NCBI GenBank assembly: GCA_049997875.1 | Contig: JBEKRC010000002.1 | Span: 66,755 to 130,754, forward strand | Length of the DNA: 64,000 nucleotides | Origin: Minisyncoccia bacterium | GTDB taxonomy: Bacteria > Patescibacteriota > Minisyncoccia > UBA6257 > 2-01-FULL-56-20 | Direction of reading: 5' to 3' | Shown here: one piece after another, positions 1,794 through 14,197 of the stretch | Position numbering within the stretch: position 1 is the first letter of the stretch | Layout: each line of letters opens with the position of its first letter | The notes under the pieces: model-generated | Databases searched by the model: none | Seen by the model: the letters and a program-made list of their open reading frames with translations, nothing else | Told to the model about the DNA's origin: nothing | Position numbers and translations under genes: made by a program

Positions 1794-1838
1794 ACGGCTC
1801 CAAAGGCCGCTGTCCTACCATTAGACGACCCCGCAATA

Positions 1839-1872
1839 GTGCACAAGTGCACCTGTATAATGTATTATAAAA
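1839..1872 (+). promoter_or_regulatory. SOD promoter region: palindrome GTGCACaaGTGCAC, extended -10 TGTATAAT, and AT palindrome TATAAT-GT-ATTATA
   Basis: GTGCACAAGTGCAC at 1839-1852; TGtATAAT at 1854-1861; TATAATGTATTATA 1856-1869, about 55 nt upstream of the ATG at 1919. Confidence 0.45.
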
Positions 1873-1918
1873 TGGAAAGGGTCGCAAGAAAAAAATAAAC
1901 TTATTAAATACCAACCTT

Positions 1919-2527
1919 ATGAAATACGAACTGCCAAAACTGCCGTACGCCTACGACGCGTTGGAACCGTACCTTGACGCGAAGACGATGGAGATTCACC
2001 ACGCGAAGCATCATCAGGCGTACGTGAACAATCTGAATGCGGCATTGGAAAAGCATCCGGAGATCGCGGACCGGTCGCTTGAGGAACTTTTGCGGTCGCT
2101 GGATTCCGTGCCGGAGGACATCCGCACGGCGGTGCACAACCACGGCGGGGGGCACGCGAACCACTCGTTTTTTTGGGTCACCATGGCAGGGCCGGACAAT
2201 GGCGGAGGTGGCGAACCGAGCGGGAAAATAGGGGATGCGATTGCGCAGGCATTCGGCGGATTTCCGAAATTCAAAGAGGAGTTTACGAAAGCGGCTGGGG
2301 GCGTTTTTGGAAGCGGTTGGGCGTGGCTCGTGCGTGACGCAAACGGCAAACTGACCGTCACAACGACGCCGAACCAGGACAGCCCGCTCACAAAAGGGCA
2401 GACGCCGATTCTTTGCTTGGACGTATGGGAGCACGCGTACTATATTTTGTACACCTCAAATCGAGGAGAATATGTAAAAAACTGGTGGAACGTGGTGAAT
2501 TGGGAAGAGGCGGAGAAGAGGTTATAA
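1919..2527 (+). CDS. Superoxide dismutase, Fe/Mn family
   Basis: [40 protein letters not shown] ... [28 protein letters not shown]; canonical Fe/Mn-SOD metal-ligand and C-terminal motifs. Confidence 0.95.
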
Positions 2528-2653
2528 ACAACAGTTTTTCTGCGGATTTTCTGTTTTTGATGGTAAATGATGGTAAAATGATGGGGAATGACTCCCGCGA
2601 GAAACGATGACAAAACGAGGAGCGTGTTTGATGTGCATACGGAGAAAGCCCGC

Positions 2654-5600
2654 ATGTCAAGACACTCGCTCAAAGAAATTATCTATGGCAGGAACGTTCT
2701 CAATTTGCGGCCTGGATTCGGGAAGCGCCACCCGTGGTGGTCGCTTGTAATCCTTCTTGTTCTGATCGGCGGCATTTTCTGGAGTATTCGGAAGCTTTCC
2801 ACTCGCGCAGAGGTGAGCGATTTTTTCCCGCTTACGTGTTTGGGCAGTTGGCAGAACCCGGCGAATGCCCAAGGGAAGCCCGAGAGCCTGGATGCTTCGT
2901 CCACGGCGATTACGGCAGACAATGCGAGCGTATATGACCCAATCTCGCCCTTGTCGCAGATCTTTTGCGGCGCGTTTGTGCCGCCCGATTATAAAACGGA
3001 AGGCGACATGAAAGGCGTCGGCTTGACGCTCGTATGGAATATCCCGGGATTCACGACGGCGACAGCGACAGCAGCAGAGGAGGGAACTGCCACGAGCACT
3101 GCCACTGGCACCGTTCCCACTGCGCCAACCACTACTACGCCAACCACCACCGCACCCGAAGCGACGAGCACTTCGTGGCTCTTTAATGCGCAACTCCTTA
3201 ATGTCGCGTTTGCGGATACAACGGACACAGTGAGCACGGTTCCGGCCTCAAGCGACACAGACATTGCGCCGCCCACTCCTCCGCCCGCGCCCACTCCTCC
3301 TCCGCCGCCATCCGAACCGACGACAACCGAGGCCACCGCCTCTACGACGCCGAGCGGCACCGTGATCATGGCACCGCCGGTCACGGCAACGCTCACTGCG
3401 ACCGGATCCGATGTTACTGCACCGCCCGCGGCGAGCGCCGCCACCTCCTCTGTGCCGGTCTTCGCTCCGCCGCCCCCGCCTGACGACAACTTCCTGAAAG
3501 TAAGTTACAGCTTGGATGGTCAGACGTGGATTGATCTTGCGACAGTGAATCAGGACAACTGGCAGAACTTCACAGCGACCCTTCCCGTGACGAGCTGGGA
3601 CGATCTCAAAAAGCTTCAGGTGAGGATTGAAGGGATTCCGACCGCGCTCACGCAGATCCCCAAAGTATATTTGGACGGGATGTTTGTTGAGGTGCACTAT
3701 GAGATCCCACCGGCATCGCCAATTTCGCTCGGCGGAAGTACTGCCGCAACGCCGTCCGCGGCGACCACCTCGGAAGTCATCGTCCTCCCGCCGACCCAAC
3801 AGCCAGTCCCTGTCAATCAGAATAGCGATTTCAAGGCAAACGAGTCGCCGACATTTGATTTCAACTTGAACGCGCTTCCCGGGCCGACTTCCACTACCGA
3901 GCCAGCACCGGCGCCCGCAGCTCCGGAAGTGGCTCCAACTTCCTCTCCTCCGGCTACGACCACGCCCTCCAGTACGAGCCTTTCTCGTCCACCTTCTCCA
4001 TTGTCTTTTTTTTTCCGGGCTGCGGATTTTTTCCGGACCGTAGGGAAAGCGGCAGCGCACGCCATTGGGCTTGATCGTTGGTTCACTGCCTACGCGCAGT
4101 TATCTCCGAACCAGAGCCAGCTTCCCGACGCGAATAATCCGATCATCGCGCAAATCTTCGGACCCGACGGGAAACTGACAAACCTCCAGCCCGTGATCCT
4201 CGTCACGGGCGGCAACCTCCGCGTGATACTGCCAAACCAGGGCCGCGCATTCATGCCAGGCGGGTATCTTATGAAACTTTTGATTTGGCAGAATGGCGTG
4301 GCGTACCAGACGCAGAGCGATTTCAGCTGGGGCGTGCTCGCGGTGAATTTCAACAAGTCAATTTATAAGAAGGGGGATACCGCGAAGATCGGATTAGGAT
4401 TCCTTAATCCCACGGGGCATACGATCTGCGACGGCAATATTGCGATGGATATCTCCTCGCCGTCGGGAAAGATTTATCATTTTTCGACCGGCAACAAGAC
4501 AATCCTGCGGGGACCGCACTGCGCCATGCAATCATTTACGAATGATCCGGATTATTCAGCCACGCTCATTGCCGCCGAAACCGGAACCTACAACGTGGCT
4601 ATCGCGGCGCAGGATCCCTCAACGGGAGACGCGATGAAGGCGAGCGACAGTTTTGAGGCGCAAACCGATCCGCAGTTTGACGTGGAGCGCGCGGAGGCGA
4701 CCAGGATCTATCCGCCGATGACCTATCGGGCGACGATCAAAATCATTCCGAACGCGGATTACGCGGGGCCGGTGACCGAAACCGTGCCGAGCGGATTCAC
4801 GGTGACAACCGATGTTCCCACGGATATGACGACGAGCGGCGACGATCAGACGATCACCTGGCAGGTTGTTTTTAAGAAGGGCATAGAATCGGATTTCGGA
4901 TATTCTTTCAAGGCGCCGGATGCAAGCCCGGAACTTTATAAATTGGGGCCGCTTACGATCGGCAGCTGGCAGGAGTCGCGGCAGTGGCAGATCGCGGCCG
5001 ACGCGATAGCGAAGACGAAAGTTTTTATCATCAGTACCGCTTCCACGACGTGGAAGGTGCCGAATGATTGGGACAATGCGAGCAATACGATTGAGGCCAT
5101 AGGAGCGGGAGGAGGAGGAACGGCGGGTACCAATTCAAACAGAGGAGGCGCAGGAGGAGGCGGAGGTGCGTATGCAGAAATAATCAACAAAACACTCACT
5201 ATCGGTGCCAGCACCACCATTCAAGTCGGTTTAGGGGCTACGGCGGCAAGCGGAACGGACACCTTTTTCGGAAGCTCAACCTGCGCAACGTCTTTCGTTT
5301 GTGCTAAAGGTGGGCAGGCAACAACTACGAAAACGAGTTATGGTCTTGGCGGGGCGAGTTCTACGAGCGTAGGAAGCACCACCTATCCGGGTGGCAACGG
5401 TGGCCCGGGCAACTCAAGTTATGGAAGCTACGGTGGTGGCGGTGGTGGTGCGGGAGGGAAGAGCGGGGCGGGAAGCGCAGGACTCGGGACTGCCACAAGC
5501 ACGGGCGGAAATGCTGACCTCAACAACGTGACAGGAGGGGCCATCAACACTGCCGGGAATACCGGCACGGAATGGGATTCAACTCACGGTTCGGGAAGTG

Positions 5601-7294
5601 GGTCGGGAGGGCGGAACACTAGCGCCGCGGGAATTGCGGGAGTGGTCTATGGCGGAGGCGGAGGCGGCGGGTATGGAACGACGGGAGGCAGCGCGGGAGG
5701 AAACGGTATAATCGTCATCACCTATCTCCCGCGCTATATCATCCTTGGTACTACTACCCAGCCATCGAACATTACGATAGGGCCGGGCGCGGCGGCGACG
5801 ACGAGCAATGCATTTACCTTTGCGACCGACGACGGCACAAGCACCATAACCAGCGTGAACGTCGGCCTTTCTACGACGACGGGCATTTTTCAAGTTCAGA
5901 TTACGAATAGTTCGGGGACCACGGTATACGGCTCAAGCACGAATCCCGGGTCTACTTCTTTGACCGTCACGACGACCGCCATGGGCGTTTCCACGACCGC
6001 CACCACGTTCCGCACGCTCATTCAGCCCTTGAGTTATCCGAATATGCCGGCACCGCCCGGTGGAACCTACGTGGTCACCTCCACCATTACGGGCTGGACG
6101 GACGTTAATACGCTGGATCAGACCAGTACGCCGATCACATCAAACACCCTTACGATAGACAATCAGCAGCCGGCGAACGTGACGAATGCGTCCGGCACGG
6201 CGACCAGCTCGCAAGTGACGTTTAGTTGGACAAATTCAACAAGCTCCGATTTCGCGACGACGACCGTTCTGCGGGCAACATCTTCCGTTGCCGTCGCGCC
6301 GACCAACGGGACAACCACCTACGTCAGCGAGGCCATCAATGCGACGACCACCGTCGCCTGCGTCGTCGCCTCAAGCACCGCGGGTTGCACGGATACGAGT
6401 CTCTCCACCACCACATATTATTATTACGAAATTTTTGCGGCAAATACCTATGCGAACTATTCTACGGGAGTCGTGCCGGCGGGGAATCCATTCCTACCGA
6501 GCGGGAATCGACCGCCGACCGTTTCAAAAGTCGTTCTCAACGGAAATGCGGCGATTGTTTTAAATCCTGGTGGCACGCAGACGGTTACGGCAGTCGCGTC
6601 GACAACCGACCCGGACGGAGCGGGTGATATCCGGTATGCCACATCAACCATTTATCTGTCGAGTGTTGGATCAAATTGCACGGCCAACAACCTGAACTGC
6701 TACCAGGTCCCGAGTTCGAGTTGCAGCTTCAGCAATTCCACGAGCACCGTGAGCTGTTCGGCAAACATCTATTACTTCGCGGACGCCACGGATGCGTCTT
6801 CAAGCTTCAATGGTCAGACGTGGAATGCCGCTATCACCGTTACTGACAGCGCGAGCAACACAAACACTTCCTCAACCGCAAGCGGGGTAACGCTGCAAAC
6901 GCTGCTCGCGATGAGCGTCGCGCCGACCAGCATCACTTACGGGACCTTGGCGCCGGCAGGGACGAGCGCGACGAACCTCACGACCACGGTTCAGAACGCA
7001 GGCAACTGCTCAACCACGCTCCAGTTGTCCGTGCTCGCGTCCCTTATGGGCGGCCATCCGACGACCACGCTTGTGACGAGTTCCCAGCAGTACGCGACGT
7101 CATCGGGCTTTACCTACGGCACGGGCTATGCCTTGAGCAGCACACCGGTCACGTTGAACGGCTTCACCCTTGCGGCGCCCGTCTCAACGACATCCGTGTC
7201 GGGTAATATTTTTTGGGGGCTGCGAGTTCCGACGGGTACTCCTACCGGTACCTACCTGGGCACAACTACCTTTTCTGCCCTTTATCATCTGTAA
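2654..7294 (+). CDS. Giant cell-surface protein (about 1547 aa): N-terminal signal-anchor, Thr/Pro-rich linkers, Gly-rich block, Thr/Ser-rich beta-rich C-terminal domains
   Basis: Start ATG 2654 (RBS GGAGAAAG); TM WWSLVILLVLIGGIFWSI; PTPPPAPTPPPPPSEP linkers; Gly-rich 5100-5720 (GAGGGGTAGTNSNRGGAGGGGGAYAE...YGGGGGGGYGTTGGSAGGNG); C-terminal 300 aa paralogous to next gene. Confidence 0.8.
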   Translation: MSRHSLKEIIYGRNVLNLRPGFGKRHPWWSLVILLVLIGGIFWSIRKLSTRAEVSDFFPLTCLGSWQNPANAQGKPESLDASSTAITADNASVYDPISPLSQIFCGAFVPPDYKTEGDMKGVGLTLVWNIPGFTTATATAAEEGTATSTATGTVPTAPTTTTPTTTAPEATSTSWLFNAQLLNVAFADTTDTVSTVPASSDTDIAPPTPPPAPTPPPPPSEPTTTEATASTTPSGTVIMAPPVTATLTATGSDVTAPPAASAATSSVPVFAPPPPPDDNFLKVSYSLDGQTWIDLATVNQDNWQNFTATLPVTSWDDLKKLQVRIEGIPTALTQIPKVYLDGMFVEVHYEIPPASPISLGGSTAATPSAATTSEVIVLPPTQQPVPVNQNSDFKANESPTFDFNLNALPGPTSTTEPAPAPAAPEVAPTSSPPATTTPSSTSLSRPPSPLSFFFRAADFFRTVGKAAAHAIGLDRWFTAYAQLSPNQSQLPDANNPIIAQIFGPDGKLTNLQPVILVTGGNLRVILPNQGRAFMPGGYLMKLLIWQNGVAYQTQSDFSWGVLAVNFNKSIYKKGDTAKIGLGFLNPTGHTICDGNIAMDISSPSGKIYHFSTGNKTILRGPHCAMQSFTNDPDYSATLIAAETGTYNVAIAAQDPSTGDAMKASDSFEAQTDPQFDVERAEATRIYPPMTYRATIKIIPNADYAGPVTETVPSGFTVTTDVPTDMTTSGDDQTITWQVVFKKGIESDFGYSFKAPDASPELYKLGPLTIGSWQESRQWQIAADAIAKTKVFIISTASTTWKVPNDWDNASNTIEAIGAGGGGTAGTNSNRGGAGGGGGAYAEIINKTLTIGASTTIQVGLGATAASGTDTFFGSSTCATSFVCAKGGQATTTKTSYGLGGASSTSVGSTTYPGGNGGPGNSSYGSYGGGGGGAGGKSGAGSAGLGTATSTGGNADLNNVTGGAINTAGNTGTEWDSTHGSGSGSGGRNTSAAGIAGVVYGGGGGGGYGTTGGSAGGNGIIVITYLPRYIILGTTTQPSNITIGPGAAATTSNAFTFATDDGTSTITSVNVGLSTTTGIFQVQITNSSGTTVYGSSTNPGSTSLTVTTTAMGVSTTATTFRTLIQPLSYPNMPAPPGGTYVVTSTITGWTDVNTLDQTSTPITSNTLTIDNQQPANVTNASGTATSSQVTFSWTNSTSSDFATTTVLRATSSVAVAPTNGTTTYVSEAINATTTVACVVASSTAGCTDTSLSTTTYYYYEIFAANTYANYSTGVVPAGNPFLPSGNRPPTVSKVVLNGNAAIVLNPGGTQTVTAVASTTDPDGAGDIRYATSTIYLSSVGSNCTANNLNCYQVPSSSCSFSNSTSTVSCSANIYYFADATDASSSFNGQTWNAAITVTDSASNTNTSSTASGVTLQTLLAMSVAPTSITYGTLAPAGTSATNLTTTVQNAGNCSTTLQLSVLASLMGGHPTTTLVTSSQQYATSSGFTYGTGYALSSTPVTLNGFTLAAPVSTTSVSGNIFWGLRVPTGTPTGTYLGTTTFSALYHL
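7064..7162. repeat. 99-bp segment nearly identical (1 mismatch) to 8061-8159, shared by the two tandem paralogs
   Basis: accacgcttgtgacgagttcccagcagtacgcgacgtcatcgggctttacctacggcacgggctatgccttgagcagcac[a/g]ccggtcacgttgaacggc. Confidence 0.85.
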
Positions 7295-7346
7295 TAGTTA
7301 TCCACAGGTAAGAAACATCCATTTTGCTATAATAATACTAAGCTGG

Positions 7347-8291
7347 ATGGATAAAAAGCTTATACAGATTTTGGTCGTTACTGCCCTTGCCACAGCCGCT
7401 TTTTTGTTGGTCGCCCAAACCGTTTTCGGTACTGCGACGACTACCAGTGTTACGAGTAGTGCGACCGTGACGACCACGGCGCCCATTGTTTCCTTCGTTT
7501 CAGGCCCGAATGGAGGTACGGCTATCAGCCTTAACGCCAATACGACAACGCCGATCTCCGTCGCCGTCACGGTCACCGATTATAACGGCTGCACGGATTT
7601 TAATAACAGCACCGAGACCATAGCGTTGTTCCGCGGCGATATCGCATCCTCGTCGTGCCTCACGAGCAGCACGCCGAACCCGCTCTTTTGCTATGTGGCC
7701 AGCGCATTTTCAACATCGACTTGCCCCGGCGGCTTTACCGCAAACGCCACCACAACGTTCTCCATGTACTATTTCGCCTCGCCGACCGACAACGCCTCCT
7801 ATACCTATAATGGAAAGGGTTGGCAAGGGGCTATAACAGTCACAAATCCCGCCAAACTCAGCGTCAGCACCACCTCTGCGACGACTACGCTGAACAGTCT
7901 TGAGGCGATCAGCTCAACGCCAAGCTCCATAGCCTATGGAACGCTCGCGCCGGCACAAGTCAACAGTCCTTCCGTAACCACGACGATTTCAGACGTCGGC
8001 AACACTTCAACGACGTTCCAGTTTTCGGCTACGCAATCTCTCACGGGCGGCGTGCCGACAACCACGCTTGTGACGAGTTCCCAGCAGTACGCGACGTCAT
8101 CGGGCTTTACCTACGGCACGGGCTATGCCTTGAGCAGCACGCCGGTCACGTTGAACGGCGTGTCAATCGCCGCTCCCATAAGTACCACTACGGTTTCCAC
8201 CAATATATTTTGGCTGTTGCAGGTCCCTACCGGAACGCCGACGGGAACATACAACGGCACCAACCTTTTCACGGGCCAATCGGTAAACTAG
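7347..8291 (+). CDS. Secreted Thr/Ser-rich surface protein, paralog of the C-terminal region of the giant protein
   Basis: Start MDKKLIQILVVTALATAAFLLVA (signal peptide) at ATG 7347; C-terminus TTTLVTSSQQYATSSGFTYGTGYALSSTPVTLNG... matches the giant protein C-terminus. Confidence 0.75.
   Translation: MDKKLIQILVVTALATAAFLLVAQTVFGTATTTSVTSSATVTTTAPIVSFVSGPNGGTAISLNANTTTPISVAVTVTDYNGCTDFNNSTETIALFRGDIASSSCLTSSTPNPLFCYVASAFSTSTCPGGFTANATTTFSMYYFASPTDNASYTYNGKGWQGAITVTNPAKLSVSTTSATTTLNSLEAISSTPSSIAYGTLAPAQVNSPSVTTTISDVGNTSTTFQFSATQSLTGGVPTTTLVTSSQQYATSSGFTYGTGYALSSTPVTLNGVSIAAPISTTTVSTNIFWLLQVPTGTPTGTYNGTNLFTGQSVN
8061..8159. repeat. Second copy of the 99-bp inter-paralog identical segment
   Basis: See 7064-7162. 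Confidence 0.85.
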
Positions 8292-8357
8292 GGACTTAGC
8301 GGTTTTTTTCTCTCGCTCGGCCATTCCTCCGAACGTCTTTCGTTTTGCGCGCAGGGG

Positions 8358-9320
8358 ATGAATATGCTACCATATACCCATAACGGTATGAAGCATTCTT
8401 TCCGAAAGTTTAGCCGTTTGTTTTTCATTGCCTTCGCATTCGCCGCAATATTGTTGCTGGGAAGCGCAGAAAGGAGCCTTGCGGCGTTCGGCATTTCGCC
8501 TCCCTTCATCAACGCTGACCACCTTGTGCCCGGCGTCACCTATTCGCAGACGGTCTACCTCGTGCAAGATCAGCCCGATCAAAATCTTGAAATCAGAGCG
8601 GCGTTAAGCGTGCCCGACCACATCAAGCCATGGATAAGTTTCGATACGGGAAATGATTTTATCATACCGCAGGGCACGCGCCAGTTCCCGGTACAGATCA
8701 CCATCACGGTACCGAAGGGGGAATCGCTCGGAAAGTACACGGGGAACGTGAGTTTCCAAAGCGTTCCAGGAAAAACGGGGCAAGTGACGATAGCCCTTGG
8801 GGTGAACGTATCCCTCAGCCTTACGGTTGGCAACGATATTTATGAAAAATATTCCGTCCCCCTGATCGCATTTCCGGATATTGAGGAAGGATGGAATCCG
8901 AAGGTGGCGGTGCGTTTTGAGAATGATGGCAACATACCCGAATCGTTTGACGCTGCGACGTTCGATCTTTACGATGAGTATGATGCTGTCCGCCTTGCGT
9001 TTGCGGAAAAGCAAAGCGGATTTCCAATAACACCGCCGTTCGTGACGAGCAATTACGTCATTGAATTCCCTACAAGCTTTCATTTGGGAGTAGGCGATTA
9101 CTGGGCAGTGGTGAATTTTTATAAAGATAACCAGGCGGTCGCCAGCCAGAAAACCGTGTTCCATGTCCTCCCTGCGGGATCGCTTTCGCCCACTGGATTG
9201 CTCCTCTCTTCTTTAAAAACCTACTGGTACTACTACCTCGTCGGCCTCATTGTACTTTTGCTCATCGGACGTCGGTTGTGGATATTCCGGCTGCGTAAAA
9301 AAAGAGCGGTGGTTGAGTAA
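8358..9320 (+). CDS. Secreted protein with N-terminal signal peptide and C-terminal TM anchor plus basic tail (Ig-like/beta-sandwich surface protein)
   Basis: FFIAFAFAAILLLGSAERSLAAFGISPP signal; C-terminus YWYYYLVGLIVLLLIGRRLWIFRLRKKR. Confidence 0.6.
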   Translation: MNMLPYTHNGMKHSFRKFSRLFFIAFAFAAILLLGSAERSLAAFGISPPFINADHLVPGVTYSQTVYLVQDQPDQNLEIRAALSVPDHIKPWISFDTGNDFIIPQGTRQFPVQITITVPKGESLGKYTGNVSFQSVPGKTGQVTIALGVNVSLSLTVGNDIYEKYSVPLIAFPDIEEGWNPKVAVRFENDGNIPESFDAATFDLYDEYDAVRLAFAEKQSGFPITPPFVTSNYVIEFPTSFHLGVGDYWAVVNFYKDNQAVASQKTVFHVLPAGSLSPTGLLLSSLKTYWYYYLVGLIVLLLIGRRLWIFRLRKKRAVVE

Positions 9321-9338
9321 TGCCATACCATCGCGATC

Positions 9339-10532
9339 ATGACGCCGCGCCGCGACTATTATATCCTTGCGATCGTCGGCGTATGTTTCATAATCCTACC
9401 CGCATCTGCGGCCGTGCTCCCAACCTCGGTGTCCGTCGTGATAGTAGTGGTGCCCAATGCGCCTTCTGATCTCACCGCCGTTTCAACTGCCCCGACCCAA
9501 GTGGCGCTTACGTGGACCGATAACTCCGGTAATGAGGATGGATTTAGCGTTGAACGCAAAACGGGAGCGGGTGGAACCTATGCGCAAATCGGAATAACGG
9601 GGACTGGCATAGCGACCTATGCGGATAACTCCGTAACTCCGGCAACCACCTATTTTTACCGCACAAGGGCCTTTGCCGGATCCAATTATTCCCCCTATAG
9701 CAATGAGGCGAGCGTGACTACCGCCTACGGTGTCAGCGGTAGTGGCGGGGGGGGAGGAGGCGGCGGCGGCGGTGGAGGGGGAGGATATTATTCTCCTCCG
9801 CCGGTATTTCAGACGTCAGCGATTTTTCGGGGAATAGCATATCCATTGAGCAGCATTAAGCTTCTTGAAAATGGACAGACGGTTGCCGTGACGCAATCGG
9901 GGCCTGACGCAAAGTTTGAAATTGACCTCTCAAACATCACTCCGGGAACCTACAATTTCGGTGTCTTGGCAAAGGATCCGCAAGGCGGCCACTCGATCGT
10001 TCAGACGTTCTCTGTCACCCTTACGTACGGCGCGTCGACCATCGTGAGCGGCATTTTTTTCCCACCTACCATCAGCGCGGATAAAGTACAGGTGAAGCGC
10101 GGCGACGTGCTTACGCTTCTGGGTTATACCGCGCCTACAGCGACTGTCGCCGTCGTTATTCATTCTGCGAATGAGATTATGAAAAACGTCACTTCCGCCG
10201 ACAGTGGGGCGTGGGTATACGCCGTGAATACCGATCCATTGGATTACGGCAATCACACGGCGCACGCTTGGGCGGCGGCGGGCGGCGCCGTGACCCCGGA
10301 CTCGGACATTCTTGCGTTTACGGTAGGCGATACTAATATTGCCGCGCCGCCGACGCAAACTTGCGCGTTCGTGGGGGATTTGAACGGGGATTGCAAGGTC
10401 AACCTCATTGATTTTTCGATTATGGCGTATTGGTATGGCAGGCCGAATCCGCCGGCAGGCGTTGACTTGAACCACGACGGGACCATCACTCTCGTTGACT
10501 TCAGTATTCTCATGTATTATTGGACCGGCTAA
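9339..10532 (+). CDS. Secreted FN3-domain protein with poly-Gly linker and C-terminal dockerin module
   Basis: FN3: PSDLTAVSTAPTQVALTWTDNSGNEDGFSVERK...TTYFYRTRAF; dockerin duplicated Ca-binding segments GDLNGDCKVNLIDFSIMAYWYG and VDLNHDGTITLVDFSILMYYW at the C-terminus. Confidence 0.8.
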   Translation: MTPRRDYYILAIVGVCFIILPASAAVLPTSVSVVIVVVPNAPSDLTAVSTAPTQVALTWTDNSGNEDGFSVERKTGAGGTYAQIGITGTGIATYADNSVTPATTYFYRTRAFAGSNYSPYSNEASVTTAYGVSGSGGGGGGGGGGGGGGYYSPPPVFQTSAIFRGIAYPLSSIKLLENGQTVAVTQSGPDAKFEIDLSNITPGTYNFGVLAKDPQGGHSIVQTFSVTLTYGASTIVSGIFFPPTISADKVQVKRGDVLTLLGYTAPTATVAVVIHSANEIMKNVTSADSGAWVYAVNTDPLDYGNHTAHAWAAAGGAVTPDSDILAFTVGDTNIAAPPTQTCAFVGDLNGDCKVNLIDFSIMAYWYGRPNPPAGVDLNHDGTITLVDFSILMYYWTG

Positions 10533-10533
10533 T

Positions 10534-11433
10534 ATGAAGCGATCTCTTTTCATCCTCGGATTCGTCGGTATGCTTTTTCTCCCTTGGCGGTCGTTTGCTT
10601 CGGTTATGACCGTGCGGCCATCTCCGGGGAATCCCTTGGCGATCATGGTCCACCTTAATACGGAAGGGGAAAATGTGAATGCCTTGGAAGCCCATTTCAC
10701 ATTTGATACCAATGCCTTTTCGGTGAGCAGCATAAGCGATGGCGGCTCCATCGTGAACCTTTGGGTAGAGACGCCAATCTTCTCAAACACTTCTGGTACC
10801 GTAGACTTTGCCGGCATCATTCCGGGAGGGGAAAGCACGGCGGACGGGACCATTATTACCATCATGATTGTTCCCAAAGAAGCCAACGCGACTACGAGCT
10901 TCACGCTCGTTTCGGCGCAGGCCCTTTTGAATGACGGACAAGGGACGCGGGCGTTGCTTTCCGTCATTAGTAATCCGTTCCCGCTGCTTACAGGAACCGC
11001 CGTATCGTCAACCATCGATACGCAAGCGCCGGACCCGTTCACGCCGGAGATCGGCCAAGAGCAAAATATTTTCAACGGGCAATATTTTTTGGCGTTCTCT
11101 ACGACCGATCAACGGTCGGGCATCGATCATTATGAAGTTCTTGAAATGCAAGCGGGCATGAAGATCGGGGCATCGTCCTCCTGGCAGGTTGCCGCTTCGC
11201 CGTACCTTTTGAAGGATCAGACGCTCTCAAGCGATATCTATGTTCGCGCCGTTGATAGGGCCGGAAATTTTCGAATAGCTGAAGTCCCGGCTGAGCATCC
11301 GGAATTGAAGGCCCGGGTCGCGCGGGGCGGCGCCGAAACACTCTTTGGGTCCATAGTGTTATTATTAGTCATAGGAATCATATTTTGGATTTGGAAATGG
11401 AGAAGAAAAAAACTATCGCGAGATTCCGGATAA
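10534..11433 (+). CDS. Cohesin-domain protein with Ig-like domain and C-terminal TM anchor (scaffoldin-like anchor protein 1)
   Basis: Signal peptide MKRSLFILGFVGMLFLPWRSFA; cohesin-like segment VMTVRPSPGNPLAIMVHLNTEGENVNALEAHFTFDTNAFSVSSISDGGSIVNLW...DGTIITIMIVPKEANATTSFTLVSAQALLNDGQGT; SGIDHYE...RAVDRAGNF Ig-like motif; C-terminal TM IVLLLVIGIIFWIWKWRRKK. Confidence 0.75.
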   Translation: MKRSLFILGFVGMLFLPWRSFASVMTVRPSPGNPLAIMVHLNTEGENVNALEAHFTFDTNAFSVSSISDGGSIVNLWVETPIFSNTSGTVDFAGIIPGGESTADGTIITIMIVPKEANATTSFTLVSAQALLNDGQGTRALLSVISNPFPLLTGTAVSSTIDTQAPDPFTPEIGQEQNIFNGQYFLAFSTTDQRSGIDHYEVLEMQAGMKIGASSSWQVAASPYLLKDQTLSSDIYVRAVDRAGNFRIAEVPAEHPELKARVARGGAETLFGSIVLLLVIGIIFWIWKWRRKKLSRDSG

Positions 11434-12839
11434 TCGTGAGCGCGCTTGCGGCGCTTGCAGGGCTTTTTGGCGCCCGAAACGCACATGCCGCAACGCTTTT
11501 CTTTTCGCCGCAATCGGGAACATATTTTACGGGACGCAGTTTTACCGTTGCCGTCAAGGTTTCCTCGCCCGACCAGGCGATGAGTGCCGCGCAAGGTGAA
11601 ATTTCCTTTCCGACAAAAAATCTTGCGGTACTTTCGGTATCAAAGACAGATTCCATTATGAATCTTTGGGTCCAGGACCCTACGTTCTCAAATCATGACG
11701 GCGTAATTAATTTCGGAGGCGTGGCGGTGAACCCCGGTTTCAAGGGAACCGATGGGACGATCTTCACGGTGACTTTTGAGGCGGAAAGTCCTGGTAGCGC
11801 CCCGTTATCATTTATCTCGGGGTCAGTTCTTGCGAACGACGGGAAAGGAACCAATATTTTGAGCGGCATGCAGAGCGCAAATTTCAGCGTCATTCCTCTT
11901 GCCGCCATGCCCGCGAATGCTTCAGCGCCGGCCGTTCTCATCATCTCCAATCCGCCCCTTGCCGACGGGAATTGGTATAACCTTGATCACATTACGTTCG
12001 ACTGGAGCGTTCCCTCGAATGCCGAAGGGGTCGATTATACGATATCGACCAATGCCAACTTCCAACTTCCCGATGTAAATCTGGGTTTTGTTTCACAGGT
12101 GACCTATGATCTCTCGAATTTTTCAGATGGTACGTGGTATTTCTTTGTAAGTTTCAAAAGCGGCAATTCCTGGTCGCCGCCAGCCGTGAAAATAATCATG
12201 CTTGACCGGACGCCGCCTCGCCCGTTCGTCATTACGCGCGAGGATACGGACGAAACGGACGCGCAGCCCGTTTTCCAATGGGTAGCGGCCGACGACGTGT
12301 CTGGCATTGATCATTATGAAGCTAGGATCGGCAATGGCGATTGGTTCAACCCCGCCAGCCTCGAAAGCACTGCCGCTTCTTACGTTTTGCCGCCGCAGTC
12401 GCCGACCGACGTGCGGACGTTCACCGTCCGCGCGTTTGATAGGGCAGGGAATTTCACTGACTCCTCAATTGACTTCCGCGTGTTTCCTCCGGCCGTGCTT
12501 TGTAAGGGTGATGGTCTCTCATGCAGGCTTTTGGCGCTCGCCGTGCGATGGGAATGGCTGATCATTCTCATCTTTATTCTTCTTGTTTTCGGCACGTATG
12601 GATTTATTTATCGTCTCCTGCGGTGGAGGAAGCAATCAAGGAAAGAGTTACAAGAATTCAAAGATGAATTGCAGCGCGATCTGAAGCGGGTAGAAGAAAA
12701 GGCCCGAGAGGCCGGCGGCGGCGAGACCGATCTCAGGCAATCCCATCTTCTGGAAGAGAAGCGTTCGCTCGAAAGGCAAATTCGCCACATTGTGGAGGAC
12801 GTGAAGGAAGAACTCAAGCGCCTTACGGACAAAAAATGA
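11397..12839 (+). CDS. Cohesin-domain protein 2 with two Ig-like domains, TM helix and cytoplasmic coiled-coil tail (scaffoldin-like anchor protein 2)
   Basis: Signal peptide; cohesin-like ATLFFSPQSGTYFTGRSFTVAVKVSSPDQAMSAAQGEISFPTKNLAVLSVSKTDSIMNLWV...DGTIFTVTFEAESPGSAPLSFISGSVLANDGKGT; SGIDHYEARI...RAFDRAGNF; TM WLIILIFILLVFGTYGFIY then KQSRKELQEFKDELQRDLKRVEEK. Confidence 0.75.
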   Translation: MEKKKTIARFRIIVSALAALAGLFGARNAHAATLFFSPQSGTYFTGRSFTVAVKVSSPDQAMSAAQGEISFPTKNLAVLSVSKTDSIMNLWVQDPTFSNHDGVINFGGVAVNPGFKGTDGTIFTVTFEAESPGSAPLSFISGSVLANDGKGTNILSGMQSANFSVIPLAAMPANASAPAVLIISNPPLADGNWYNLDHITFDWSVPSNAEGVDYTISTNANFQLPDVNLGFVSQVTYDLSNFSDGTWYFFVSFKSGNSWSPPAVKIIMLDRTPPRPFVITREDTDETDAQPVFQWVAADDVSGIDHYEARIGNGDWFNPASLESTAASYVLPPQSPTDVRTFTVRAFDRAGNFTDSSIDFRVFPPAVLCKGDGLSCRLLALAVRWEWLIILIFILLVFGTYGFIYRLLRWRKQSRKELQEFKDELQRDLKRVEEKAREAGGGETDLRQSHLLEEKRSLERQIRHIVEDVKEELKRLTDKK

Positions 12840-12861
12840 GCCGTCAGGTATAATAATACGT

Positions 12862-13356
12862 ATGGCATTCATTTCGACGACTTTCCTTATTACGGTTGCG
12901 CTGTCGGTGATTGCCCTTCTGCTCGTGTTCATTACCTATGAGCTTTGGAAAAATAATCGTCTCAATGCGAAAAGGATAGATAGCGCGATGAAAGAAGGAC
13001 CGGGTGGCCCGATCGATCTTCGTAAGAAAGAGCTCGGCGTGCTTGATAGCAAGGGAACATATTCTTACGATTCCGTCGTAATGGACGAGGTCTTGGGGGG
13101 AAAGATCATTGAAGGGTTGAAGGAGGCGCTCCGTATAACCGAGGGAACGTATAAAAAGCTTTCCGAAAAATTCAAAGACGATCGCGAAAAGCGCATAGAG
13201 CTTGCGAACGACTGGCTAAATTATTTGGAAGCGCTGGACAACATCAAACAATCCCGGATCGATTACCGCATGAGCAGCAGCGAGATAGAGGGGGAAAGCG
13301 AAAGAATTAAGCTCGAGGTAGAGAATAAATTCAAGAACCTGCTTGAAGCGCCCTAG
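12862..13356 (+). CDS. Membrane-anchored hypothetical protein (164 aa)
   Basis: N-terminal TM FLITVALSVIALLLVFITY, charged helical remainder. Confidence 0.5.
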   Translation: MAFISTTFLITVALSVIALLLVFITYELWKNNRLNAKRIDSAMKEGPGGPIDLRKKELGVLDSKGTYSYDSVVMDEVLGGKIIEGLKEALRITEGTYKKLSEKFKDDREKRIELANDWLNYLEALDNIKQSRIDYRMSSSEIEGESERIKLEVENKFKNLLEAP

Positions 13357-14197
13357 CTCGCTCGCCTTCGTTCTGGATTTTCGCAAGCACGAGATGCGTT
13401 CCGGACAGTTTTGCTTCAAGCAGTTTTGTCCGTTTGGCGTTCTTCATCGTCCAGCACCCTGGCTCGGGATTAAGCGCGCGGATTTTCCGTATGATTATTT
13501 CGGCTTGCTCCGCGTCGCCCGCGAGCGCTTTATCGAGATTTGCTCCGTCCACAAAGCCATCCTGCGTTGTGAATTTTTTAGTGTAGGTCGCTTGCGCCTC
13601 GTCCTGCGCATGCGGTTTCAATTTTCCCGCCATAAGGCCTGGCAGCGTTTCGAGAAGAAGTTCCGCGGAGCGCTGCGCCAATCGCTCCTCAAGTTCCGGA
13701 TAGTTTATTTCCAAACTATCTATAGGTATCTTTGCACTTGCAAGAACCGACCCGCGGTCCATCTTCTCGTCCATTTGGTAAATCGTGACGCCGGTTTCGC
13801 GCTCGCCGTTCAAAATGGCCGACTGGATGGGGGTGGCGCCGCGGTATTTGGGCAGGAGCGAGGGATGGACGCCGATCGTGCCAAGACGGGGAAGGTCAAG
13901 CACGGATTTTGGAATGATCTTCGCGTAAGCCGCGACCACAAAACAATCTGCGCCCAACGCCGTGAGTTCCCTGATAGAATATTCATCCAGGTTTTCGGGC
14001 TGGAAAATTTTTATGCGGGGAGCTTCCGCGCCGCGCGAGAGCACAAGCCGCTTTGTCAGCGGGGGAGTGACGATCTTTTTCCGTCCGGTCGGCCGGTCAG
14101 GATTGCATACGAGGGCCGCGGGCGGCATGTCCGCGCGGAGGAGGCGCTCAAGAATGATTTCCGCAAAGCGCGGCGTTCCGAAGAAAATGTATTTCAT
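13331..14197 (-). CDS. fmt: Methionyl-tRNA formyltransferase
   Basis: MKYIFFGTPRFAEIILERLL...GTIGVHPSLLPKYRGATPIQSAILNGERETGVTIYQMDEKMDRG. Confidence 0.9.
   Translation of the reverse strand: MKYIFFGTPRFAEIILERLLRADMPPAALVCNPDRPTGRKKIVTPPLTKRLVLSRGAEAPRIKIFQPENLDEYSIRELTALGADCFVVAAYAKIIPKSVLDLPRLGTIGVHPSLLPKYRGATPIQSAILNGERETGVTIYQMDEKMDRGSVLASAKIPIDSLEINYPELEERLAQRSAELLLETLPGLMAGKLKPHAQDEAQATYTKKFTTQDGFVDGANLDKALAGDAEQAEIIIRKIRALNPEPGCWTMKNAKRTKLLEAKLSGTHLVLAKIQNEGERARALQAGS

Follow-up and report, generated by a model that had tools for sequence, protein, structure and literature searches.

What role could a dockerin and two cohesins have in the envelope of an ultra-small, uncultured bacterium of the Minisyncoccia (Parcubacteria/CPR)? 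Cohesin and dockerin form a very strong protein-protein joint. Few bacteria are as abundant, or as poorly understood, as the Parcubacteria, nearly all of which are uncultured. In the stretch of 64,000 nucleotides analysed here (the window), three consecutive plus-strand genes, which we call DOC, COHA and COHB, encode one dockerin-bearing protein and two membrane-anchored cohesin proteins. A preliminary description of this DNA had proposed that they constitute a cohesin-dockerin system without a cellulosome. Our analysis supports that proposal, and DOC, COHA and COHB are likely to form a non-cellulosomal anchoring module of the Parcubacteria (Minisyncoccia) cell envelope. We infer the binding of the dockerin to the cohesins from the observed domain identities, membrane topology features, operon structure and conservation. 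The trio probably fastens a surface protein to the cell, in a role unrelated to cellulose degradation.

Domain structure of the dockerin protein and of the two membrane-anchored cohesin proteins

DOC (9339..10532, plus strand) encodes 397 amino acids, with a signal peptide, an FN3 head, a Gly hinge, two Ig-like domains and a C-terminal dockerin. The Gly run spans residues 134-149. The dockerin module extends over positions 10359..10529 (residues 341-397). Its first repeat occupies 10374-10442 and its second 10461-10529; the 22-residue repeats were placed at residues 346-368 and 375-397. Pfam recognizes Dockerin_1 (PF00404) between residues 346 and 393 with 28.6 bits (E 1.7e-6), against a gathering cut-off of 22.9 bits, and the DOC family profile matches the solved dockerin 2y3n_B with an E value of 3.3e-6. 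The calcium-ligand positions of repeat 1 are near-invariant among 64 DOC family members (D1 in 63, N3 in 56, D5 in 62, N9 in 59 and D12 in 63). In repeat 2 the same positions carry D (48), N (46), D (52), one of D, N or T, and D (64), and the second loop is degenerate in 19/64 dockerins. Over positions 8-20, the two repeats share 60% identity in their helices. Judged by its sequence, the C-terminus of DOC is thus a canonical duplicated dockerin, made of two calcium-loop and helix segments of about 22 residues each. A Cys pair co-varies, both residues being present in 27 sequences and the loop Cys alone in none, pointing to a disulfide within a folded module outside the cell. In the alignment of the DOC family, the N-terminal head is variable and carries lineage-specific inserts, while the stalk and the dockerin are conserved, the dockerin being the most conserved segment of all. 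The FN3 assignment of the head comes from the family profile, which matches titin FN3 domains with an E value of 8e-32; the Pfam fn3 model itself scores 23.2 bits, slightly below its cut-off of 25.

The ATG of COHA falls 1 nt past the DOC stop codon. This ATG, at position 10534, is the true start, not the TTG at 10495. The gene (10534..11433, plus strand) encodes 299 amino acids: a signal peptide, a cohesin (about 10600-10989), an FN3-like domain (about 11026-11289) and a membrane helix (about 11341-11394) followed by a 12-aa tail. The Pfam Cohesin model (PF00963, gathering cut-off 24.1 bits) matches COHA with 28.6 bits, and most COHA homologues have no precomputed Pfam match. When the profile of the cohesin family was compared with PDB sequences, cohesins appeared only at E values of 0.4-0.85, and the top match, a sulfite oxidase, was dismissed as a chance match. 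Because this sequence search was weak, fold comparison was needed to establish the cohesin identity. The AlphaFold2 (AF2) model of COHA has an overall pLDDT of 89.8, rising to about 95 across residues 23-152, and contains nine strands. Its best Foldseek matches in the PDB are nearly all cohesins, with TM-scores of 0.65-0.74 normalised to the target. The best structural match is 2w1n, the Coh-FN3 of Clostridium perfringens GH84C (E 6.7e-9); 2vn5, 1g1k and 6kgc are matched with TM-scores of about 0.7 on the target, and the Archaeoglobus fulgidus cohesin 2xdh is also among the matches. As modelled, the domain has the nine-stranded flattened β-sandwich (jelly-roll) fold of cohesins. At the level of sequence, the COHA and COHB cohesins are remote from characterised cohesins.

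COHB (11397..12839, plus strand), whose true start is the ATG at 11397, encodes 480 amino acids. Its signal peptide is followed by a cohesin (about 11490-11906), two β-sandwich domains, a membrane helix (12549-12611) and a charged cytoplasmic tail of about 75 aa (12612-12836). The Pfam Cohesin score of COHB, 23.6 bits, is 0.5 bit short of the cut-off, and the COHB orthologue at locus L003 has a precomputed Pfam cohesin match. The cohesin domains of COHA and COHB are 33% identical (E 7e-17) and their FN3-like domains are also related (E 3e-6), so that COHB is, from these alignments, clearly a paralogue of COHA. The length and charge of the COHB tail are kept among orthologues. Across related loci, the first anchor has a median spacer of about 116 aa and a median tail of about 4.5 aa, and the second anchor has a median spacer of about 233 aa and a median tail of about 74 aa, with second-anchor tails of at least 40 aa in 62/80. 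The division of labour between a short-tailed COHA and a long-tailed COHB therefore recurs across species.

These results agree with the preliminary description on most points. It had recognized the duplicated 22-residue dockerin and an FN3 domain in the product of 9339-10532. To the next two genes it had assigned a signal peptide, a cohesin, Ig-like domains and a C-terminal membrane helix, all of which we find, together with the SGIDHYE and RAxDRAGNF motifs that it had noted in the two cohesin proteins. The cohesin and dockerin profile searches that it had set as a test detect the dockerin and both cohesins, that of COHB just under threshold as given above. The cytoplasmic tail of COHB, which it had called unusual, is present and proves to be a conserved trait of second anchors.

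Gene order, conservation and the surrounding cluster

The three genes are tightly arranged. COHA and COHB overlap by 37 nt here, by 34 nt in locus L001 and by 29 nt in locus L003, and independent public gene calls gave identical protein lengths (397/299/480 aa). The DOC family comprises 692 matches, every one from CPR; 549 DOC matches were confirmed by a pattern scan (one genome per species, 185,579 species). Among the 77 fetched related loci with sufficient downstream sequence, a cohesin gene adjoins the dockerin gene in 76, and at least two cohesin genes are present in 73. The trio is also retained in small CPR genomes. A scan of positions 1800-13600 for promoters and terminators gave counts equal to those of shuffled sequence. 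The neighbourhood of the cluster is of housekeeping character, with sod upstream and fmt, def, a ctpB-like protease and rplI downstream, and is kept in L001.

The preliminary description had expected further dockerin-bearing proteins as displayed cargo. This expectation was not borne out: the 64-kb window contains a single dockerin and only two cohesins, those of the neighbouring genes. Among 1.84 billion representative proteins, the closest dockerins lie nearly all at the extreme C-terminus of proteins of 200-510 aa, the size range of the DOC family. Since this dockerin subtype is nearly confined to the C-terminus of one family, DOC looks like a dedicated ligand with two anchors rather than part of a platform for many cargos.

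The system extends further upstream than had been described. The trio sits within a larger cluster of surface proteins on the plus strand. Directly upstream of DOC lies p8 (8388..9320), with a signal peptide, two PapD-like Ig domains and a C-terminal membrane helix; it holds this position in 53/73 testable loci. It is preceded by p7 (7347..8291), a small secreted protein, and by the gene of a giant surface protein of 1568 aa (2588..7294), with an N-terminal membrane anchor, Pro/Thr-rich linkers and a Gly_rich_2 domain (Pfam, E 3.5e-9). The C-terminal domain of p7 is shared with the giant protein, at 57% identity to the C-terminus of the latter. A giant protein occupies the equivalent position in L001, L003 and other loci, and p7 is present among closer relatives; neither was detected at more distant loci. 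Downstream, the plus-strand run closes with p12 (12862..13356), a small protein whose charged helical body follows an N-terminal membrane helix. It is weakly conserved and was found again in L008 only. In searches of Pfam, NCBIfam and PDB sequences with p7, p8, the giant protein and p12, the only family matches were Gly_rich_2 for the giant protein and weak ones to Alph_Pro_TM for p8 (11/49 homologues). Membership of p7, p8 and the giant protein in the WxL/WxLIP families was considered and rejected. No WxL, WxLIP_PGBD or DUF3324 match was found by Pfam in 49 p8 homologues, 16 p7 and giant sequences gave a lone WxLIP_PGBD match with an E value of 0.21, and neither p7 nor p8 matched a PDB sequence. 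The likeness lies in fold and gene layout. The p8 fold comparison gave low TM-scores, because domain orientations differ, and tandem Ig folds are common.

Proposed pairing of the dockerin with the cohesins

The conserved cohesin motifs NA, S-x-V-x-LW, G-I-I-P-G-G and L-N-D-G-x-G-T are common to both anchors and map to strands 3, 5, 6 and 8 of the COHA model. These strands belong to the cohesin sheet that we take to be the dockerin-binding one in published complexes. The putative partners are moreover encoded by neighbouring genes at nearly all loci. Covariation between dockerin and cohesin columns was at background in 64 triplets (APC-corrected mutual information; maximum z of about 3.9-4.5 over some 4,000 column pairs), and no cohesin column stood out when compared with the degenerate second calcium loop in the same triplets. 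A joint profile of the COHA cohesin, the COHB cohesin and the dockerin retrieved only Gly-Ser-linker artefacts from PDB sequences, such as scFv constructs, and these were discarded.

The following mechanism may be proposed. DOC would be exported by Sec and its signal peptide then removed. Its dockerin would bind Ca2+ via two F-hand loops, and the two nearly identical dockerin helices would dock onto the cohesins of COHA and COHB. The latter would each cross the membrane once and raise their cohesins above it, COHA by one Ig-like domain and COHB by two. The stalk, formed by the two Ig domains and the Gly hinge, would thereby be pinned to the cell surface and would bear the lineage-variable head, an FN3 domain in this organism. 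We speculate that the head most likely serves in adhesion or contact as part of a host-dependent lifestyle, acting alongside the giant protein, p7 and p8. As speculatively, the conserved charged helical tail of COHB might tie the complex to a cytoplasmic partner or cluster the anchors. As the two halves of the dockerin are almost symmetric, either a dual-binding mode, with one cohesin at a time (that of COHA or of COHB), or simultaneous bridging of both appears possible from the repeat sequences. A stronger form of the latter, which we regard as very unlikely, would have the dockerin bind COHA and COHB simultaneously, one per helix face. The obligatory 1:1:1 complex would couple outer host contact through the variable DOC head, mechanically or informationally, to the interior of the CPR cell via the COHB tail, and would form with the WxL-like giant, p7 and p8 genes a previously undescribed host-attachment organelle of Parcubacteria.

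Many non-cellulosomal dockerins have no known cohesin partner (Peer et al. 2009, as cited in PMC6030884). The dockerin and cohesins described here could be real but unpaired. The dockerin-like module would then be a Ca2+-stabilised end-piece with another target (a glycan or other molecule of the host surface, say, or a cohesin from another locus). In that case COHA and COHB would have generic β-sandwich ectodomains with another ligand, and synteny would reflect a shared pathway. The background level of covariation and the great sequence distance from validated cohesins are in line with this, as is a Saccharibacterium dockerin-domain protein for which its authors propose host-glycan targeting (PMC10633639). 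However, the order of the genes hardly ever varies, they are tightly coupled or overlap, and the cohesin sheets of both anchors carry one and the same set of conserved motifs. Moreover, no part of DOC is better conserved than its dockerin, and the one dockerin of the window is accompanied by exactly two cohesins, those of the neighbouring genes. We therefore judge an unpaired function improbable. It is similarly unlikely that DOC is a structural component of the envelope, an S-layer-like element or wall-spanning strut that the cohesins would secure at the membrane, serving envelope integrity rather than host contact. The housekeeping neighbourhood kept in L001 and the retention of the trio in small CPR genomes would suit such a role, and the Saccharibacterium protein, likened to DOC by domain type alone, is essential (PMC10633639). 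Yet the variability of the DOC head between lineages fits recognition better than a lattice role, and Pfam detected no SLH or S-layer family in the cluster proteins.

The trio may also be one joint of a larger, six-gene surface organelle, a reading that extends the anchoring module and does not exclude it. Membrane-anchored, PapD-like p8 would hold the giant protein and p7 as WxLIP holds WxL proteins in Firmicutes, and DOC, COHA and COHB would provide a second non-covalent anchor within a single adhesion structure or fibre. We advance this tentatively and with some doubt: p7 and p8 are devoid of Pfam matches to WxL, WxLIP_PGBD or DUF3324 and of PDB sequence matches, the TM-scores are low for a tandem Ig fold that is common anyway, and the giant protein and p7 escape detection at more distant loci. 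Compared with the WxL/WxLIP surface clusters of Firmicutes (PMC10599100), the giant, p7 and p8 genes show no sequence-level membership, and no WxL domain can be recognised in the domain that the giant protein shares with p7.

Relation to known cohesin-dockerin systems

The anchoring module is not a cellulosome. Each anchor has one cohesin, the window has one dockerin, and Pfam finds neither a CBM nor a GH family among the seven cluster proteins, in keeping with the lack of glycoside hydrolases reported initially. The closest dockerins, nearly all of them from the DOC family, likewise belong to proteins that are non-enzymatic. A close parallel is with the surface anchors of cellulosomes (Ruminococcus flavefaciens ScaE and C. 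thermocellum OlpA, OlpC and SdbA), in which a single cohesin near the cell surface captures a dockerin-bearing partner, as we propose here. The COHA model superposes on the cohesins of OlpC and OlpA (4dh2, 3ul4) and on ScaE (2zf9). However, the anchors described here end in a C-terminal membrane helix, in place of SLH repeats or a sortase signal. They have no scaffoldin, CBM or enzymes, belong to a CPR host without cellulolytic context, and comprise two paralogues of differing height, one with a conserved cytoplasmic tail.

We found no paper on cohesin or dockerin in Parcubacteria, Paceibacteria or Minisyncoccia, nor one describing the DOC/COHA/COHB operon; papers on dockerins and Patescibacteria/CPR concern other organisms or a single Saccharibacteria protein. 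A conserved operon with membrane anchors and a cytoplasmic tail provides a testable handle on the surface biology of Parcubacteria. It would extend the cohesin-dockerin principle to dedicated membrane tethering, with one ligand, two anchors and no polysaccharide breakdown, and could supply new orthogonal cohesin-dockerin pairs for protein engineering.

Among systems outside cellulose degradation, the glycoside hydrolase toxins of C. perfringens have non-cellulosomal cohesin-dockerin pairs, and GH84C (2w1n) shares the order of cohesin then FN3, but the modules there link secreted enzymes to one another, whereas here catalytic domains are absent and the cohesins are membrane proteins. The architecture of COHB is paralleled by TMEM132 and the choanoflagellate 'coherin', in which an extracellular cohesin is followed by Ig-like domains, a single membrane helix and a cytoplasmic tail for which a connection to intracellular structures has been proposed (PMC6030884). 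These proteins are eukaryotic and lack a dockerin partner, and the likeness to COHB is one of architecture only. All three domains of life are represented in a catalogue of cohesin- and dockerin-like modules (Peer et al. 2009, as cited in PMC6030884), and the A. fulgidus non-cellulosomal cohesin 2xdh likewise shows the cohesin fold in a non-cellulolytic organism. Unlike 2xdh and the catalogued modules, the CPR system consists of three genes in a conserved operon, found at 76/77 testable loci, and the membrane topology of its products is defined.

The gene run and its domain composition

Seven closely spaced or overlapping genes occupy positions 2588-13356 on the plus strand of the window. They encode products of 1568, 314, 310, 397, 299, 480 and 164 aa, lengths matched by independent public gene calls from the same organism. 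Housekeeping genes lie on both sides: a superoxide dismutase gene precedes the run, and fmt, def, a CtpB-like protease gene and rplI follow it. The dockerin protein DOC (9339-10532, plus strand, 397 aa) is followed by two membrane-anchored cohesin proteins, COHA (10534-11433, plus strand, 299 aa) and COHB (11397-12839, plus strand, 480 aa); COHA starts at an ATG, not at the TTG upstream of it. The run is closed by p12 (12862-13356, plus strand, 164 aa), whose N-terminus forms a membrane helix and whose body is helical and charged. The end of its gene overlaps the convergent fmt by 26 nt, and the protein was recovered elsewhere only in locus L008.

Residues 346-393 of DOC match Pfam Dockerin_1 with 28.6 bits, above the cut-off of 22.9. 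A profile built from 42 members of the DOC family picks up titin-type FN3 domains (E 8e-32) as well as 2y3n_B, a solved dockerin from Cel48 (E 3.3e-6). Among 64 members, the two 22-residue dockerin repeats carry the canonical Ca-ligand pattern D1, N3, D5, N/D9, D12 and share a near-identical helix, (V/I)-DFSI-x-AY, the repeats being 60% identical at positions 8-20. DOC is conserved from the Gly hinge through to the dockerin; the N-terminal head is variable, with inserts that differ by lineage. Position 6 of the first Ca loop can be a Cys, which is then always accompanied by another Cys 9-11 residues upstream (DOC residues about 341-352, window 10359-10400, plus strand): 27 dockerins have both, none has the loop Cys alone, 4 have the upstream Cys alone and 33 have neither. 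This co-occurrence points to a disulfide bond within an extracellular module that is folded, probably a lineage-specific clasp on the dockerin. The second Ca loop lacks canonical ligands in 19 of the 64 dockerins (L006-L008, L012, L013, L015, L017, L018, L020, L021, L026, L028, L038, L050, L052, L053, L058, L060 and L081), one such altered sequence being YLLDGxxTVDL; the helix is kept in these dockerins, and neither cohesin showed a corresponding change.

With 28.6 bits, COHA clears the Pfam cohesin threshold of 24.1. Its AlphaFold model, built from a 56-sequence alignment (pLDDT 89.8), comprises a nine-strand sandwich (residues 23-152), a second sandwich (172-251) and a helix (265-296). The best 40 Foldseek matches of the model in the PDB are almost all cohesins, headed by 2w1n, the paired cohesin and FN3 modules from C. 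perfringens GH84C (E 6.7e-9). Type I cohesins have TM-scores of 0.65-0.74 on the target, and the search also recovered the A. fulgidus cohesin 2xdh. COHB falls 0.5 bit short of the Pfam cut-off; its cohesin is a paralogue of that of COHA (33% identity, E 7e-17), as is its membrane-proximal domain. Some family members are already labelled 'cohesin domain-containing protein' in databases. COHB continues with a membrane helix (residues 385-405) and a 75-aa charged cytoplasmic tail (window 12612-12836, plus strand). The preliminary description of 9339-12839 as a non-cellulosomal set of one dockerin-bearing FN3 protein and two cohesin anchors, each with a membrane helix and the second also with a cytoplasmic tail, was thus correct.

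Conserved motifs of both cohesins fall on strands 3, 5, 6 and 8 of the model. The sheet formed by these strands is the one that binds the dockerin in published complexes, and the placement of the motifs gives indirect support to the proposed docking of DOC on the two anchors. In 64 dockerin-cohesin triplets, covariation between the partners stayed at background level.

Conservation of two unequal anchors

A pattern scan with one genome per species gave 549 confirmed DOC matches, and the best 80 loci were fetched. Exact-protein look-ups added four loci, two of them duplicates, for a total of 82 distinct loci. All homologues come from Patescibacteria/CPR, mostly from Paceibacterota/Parcubacteria lineages; one protein of the cluster has a 100% identical counterpart in a 'Minisyncoccia bacterium' metagenome-assembled genome. 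Synteny was counted in 77 loci, those whose sequence extends 1.2 kb or more beyond the dockerin gene. A cohesin gene adjoins the dockerin gene in 76 of these; at least two cohesin genes are present in 73, and three in 10. L044 (CAZMYO010000005.1) is the sole locus with ample sequence downstream but no cohesin gene after the dockerin gene; it carries a p8-like gene upstream.

The difference between the two anchor positions has the same direction everywhere. The spacer from cohesin to membrane helix has a median of about 116 aa in the first anchor and about 233 aa in the later one, and the tails have medians of 4.5 and 74 aa, respectively. Later-anchor tails reach at least 40 aa in 62 of 80 cases, with 30-58% of residues charged. 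The tail is conserved in both length and charge among COHB orthologues, where the motifs ELxxFKxELxxDL beside the membrane and E(I/V)xKE(I/L) near the C-terminus recur, and it matched no known domain.

A single nucleotide separates the DOC stop from the COHA start. COHA and COHB overlap in three distant genomes, by 37 nt in the window (11397-11433), 34 nt in L001 (10021-10054) and 29 nt in L003 (9962-9990). The tight spacing of the three genes suggests translational coupling, and the overlaps suggest that for COHA and COHB it is conserved.

Ligand range and proposed mode of action

Within its 64 kb, the window contains a single dockerin and two cohesins of this type. When 1.84 billion representative proteins were searched with the dockerin (63 residues), 536 matched at E ≤ 1e-10. 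In nearly every case the closest of them (55-72% identical) form the extreme C-terminus of proteins of 200-510 aa, lengths typical of the DOC family. The system therefore appears to consist of a single dedicated ligand and two anchors, and a general display platform is probably not what DOC, COHA and COHB form. A separate, more distant set of proteins carries 5-14 tandem dockerin-like stretches each; P0361, P0363, P0366, P0391, P0463 and P0471 (680-1100 aa, 7-14 stretches) are 34-39% identical to the query.

The domain assignments of the three proteins, their topology features, their conservation and the structure of the operon are direct observations. For their mode of action we consider the following scheme rather likely. 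After secretion, DOC would stay tethered to the cell through its dockerin, which would dock in a Ca2+-dependent manner on the cohesins of COHA and/or COHB. Docked DOC would present its variable head on a hinged stalk, and the COHB tail would link or cluster the complex on the cytoplasmic side. Here we infer the binding and its stoichiometry, the function of the head and the role of the tail.

Known systems and upstream genes

Closest among known systems are the cellulosomal anchoring proteins with one cohesin each (ScaE, OlpA/C, SdbA) and the cohesin-dockerin pairs of C. perfringens toxins, which are non-cellulosomal; eukaryotic TMEM132 is alike in architecture only. The DOC/COHA/COHB set departs from these systems in the following respects: it is anchored by membrane helices, its two anchors are paralogues with a fixed difference in height, COHB has a conserved cytoplasmic tail, enzymes and carbohydrate modules are absent, and the host is a CPR bacterium. 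Our literature search found no paper describing this operon; an essential dockerin-domain protein has been noted in a Saccharibacterium (PMC10633639).

Three genes precede DOC. The giant protein (2588-7294) and p7 (7347-8291) share a C-terminal domain of ~190 aa. Their layout with p8 (8388-9320, 310 aa) resembles Firmicutes WxL clusters, in which one large and one small WxL protein occur together with a WxLIP anchored in the membrane (PMC10599100). Family and sequence searches found no sequence-level membership of such clusters for the upstream genes, and the likeness is therefore an analogy only. In 53 of 73 testable loci p8 is the immediate upstream neighbour of DOC, and its model (pLDDT 91) contains two PapD-like Ig domains besides a signal peptide and a membrane helix. 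In the alignment of p8 homologues, 11 of 49 match Pfam Alph_Pro_TM (PF09608) weakly (best E 6.8e-6).
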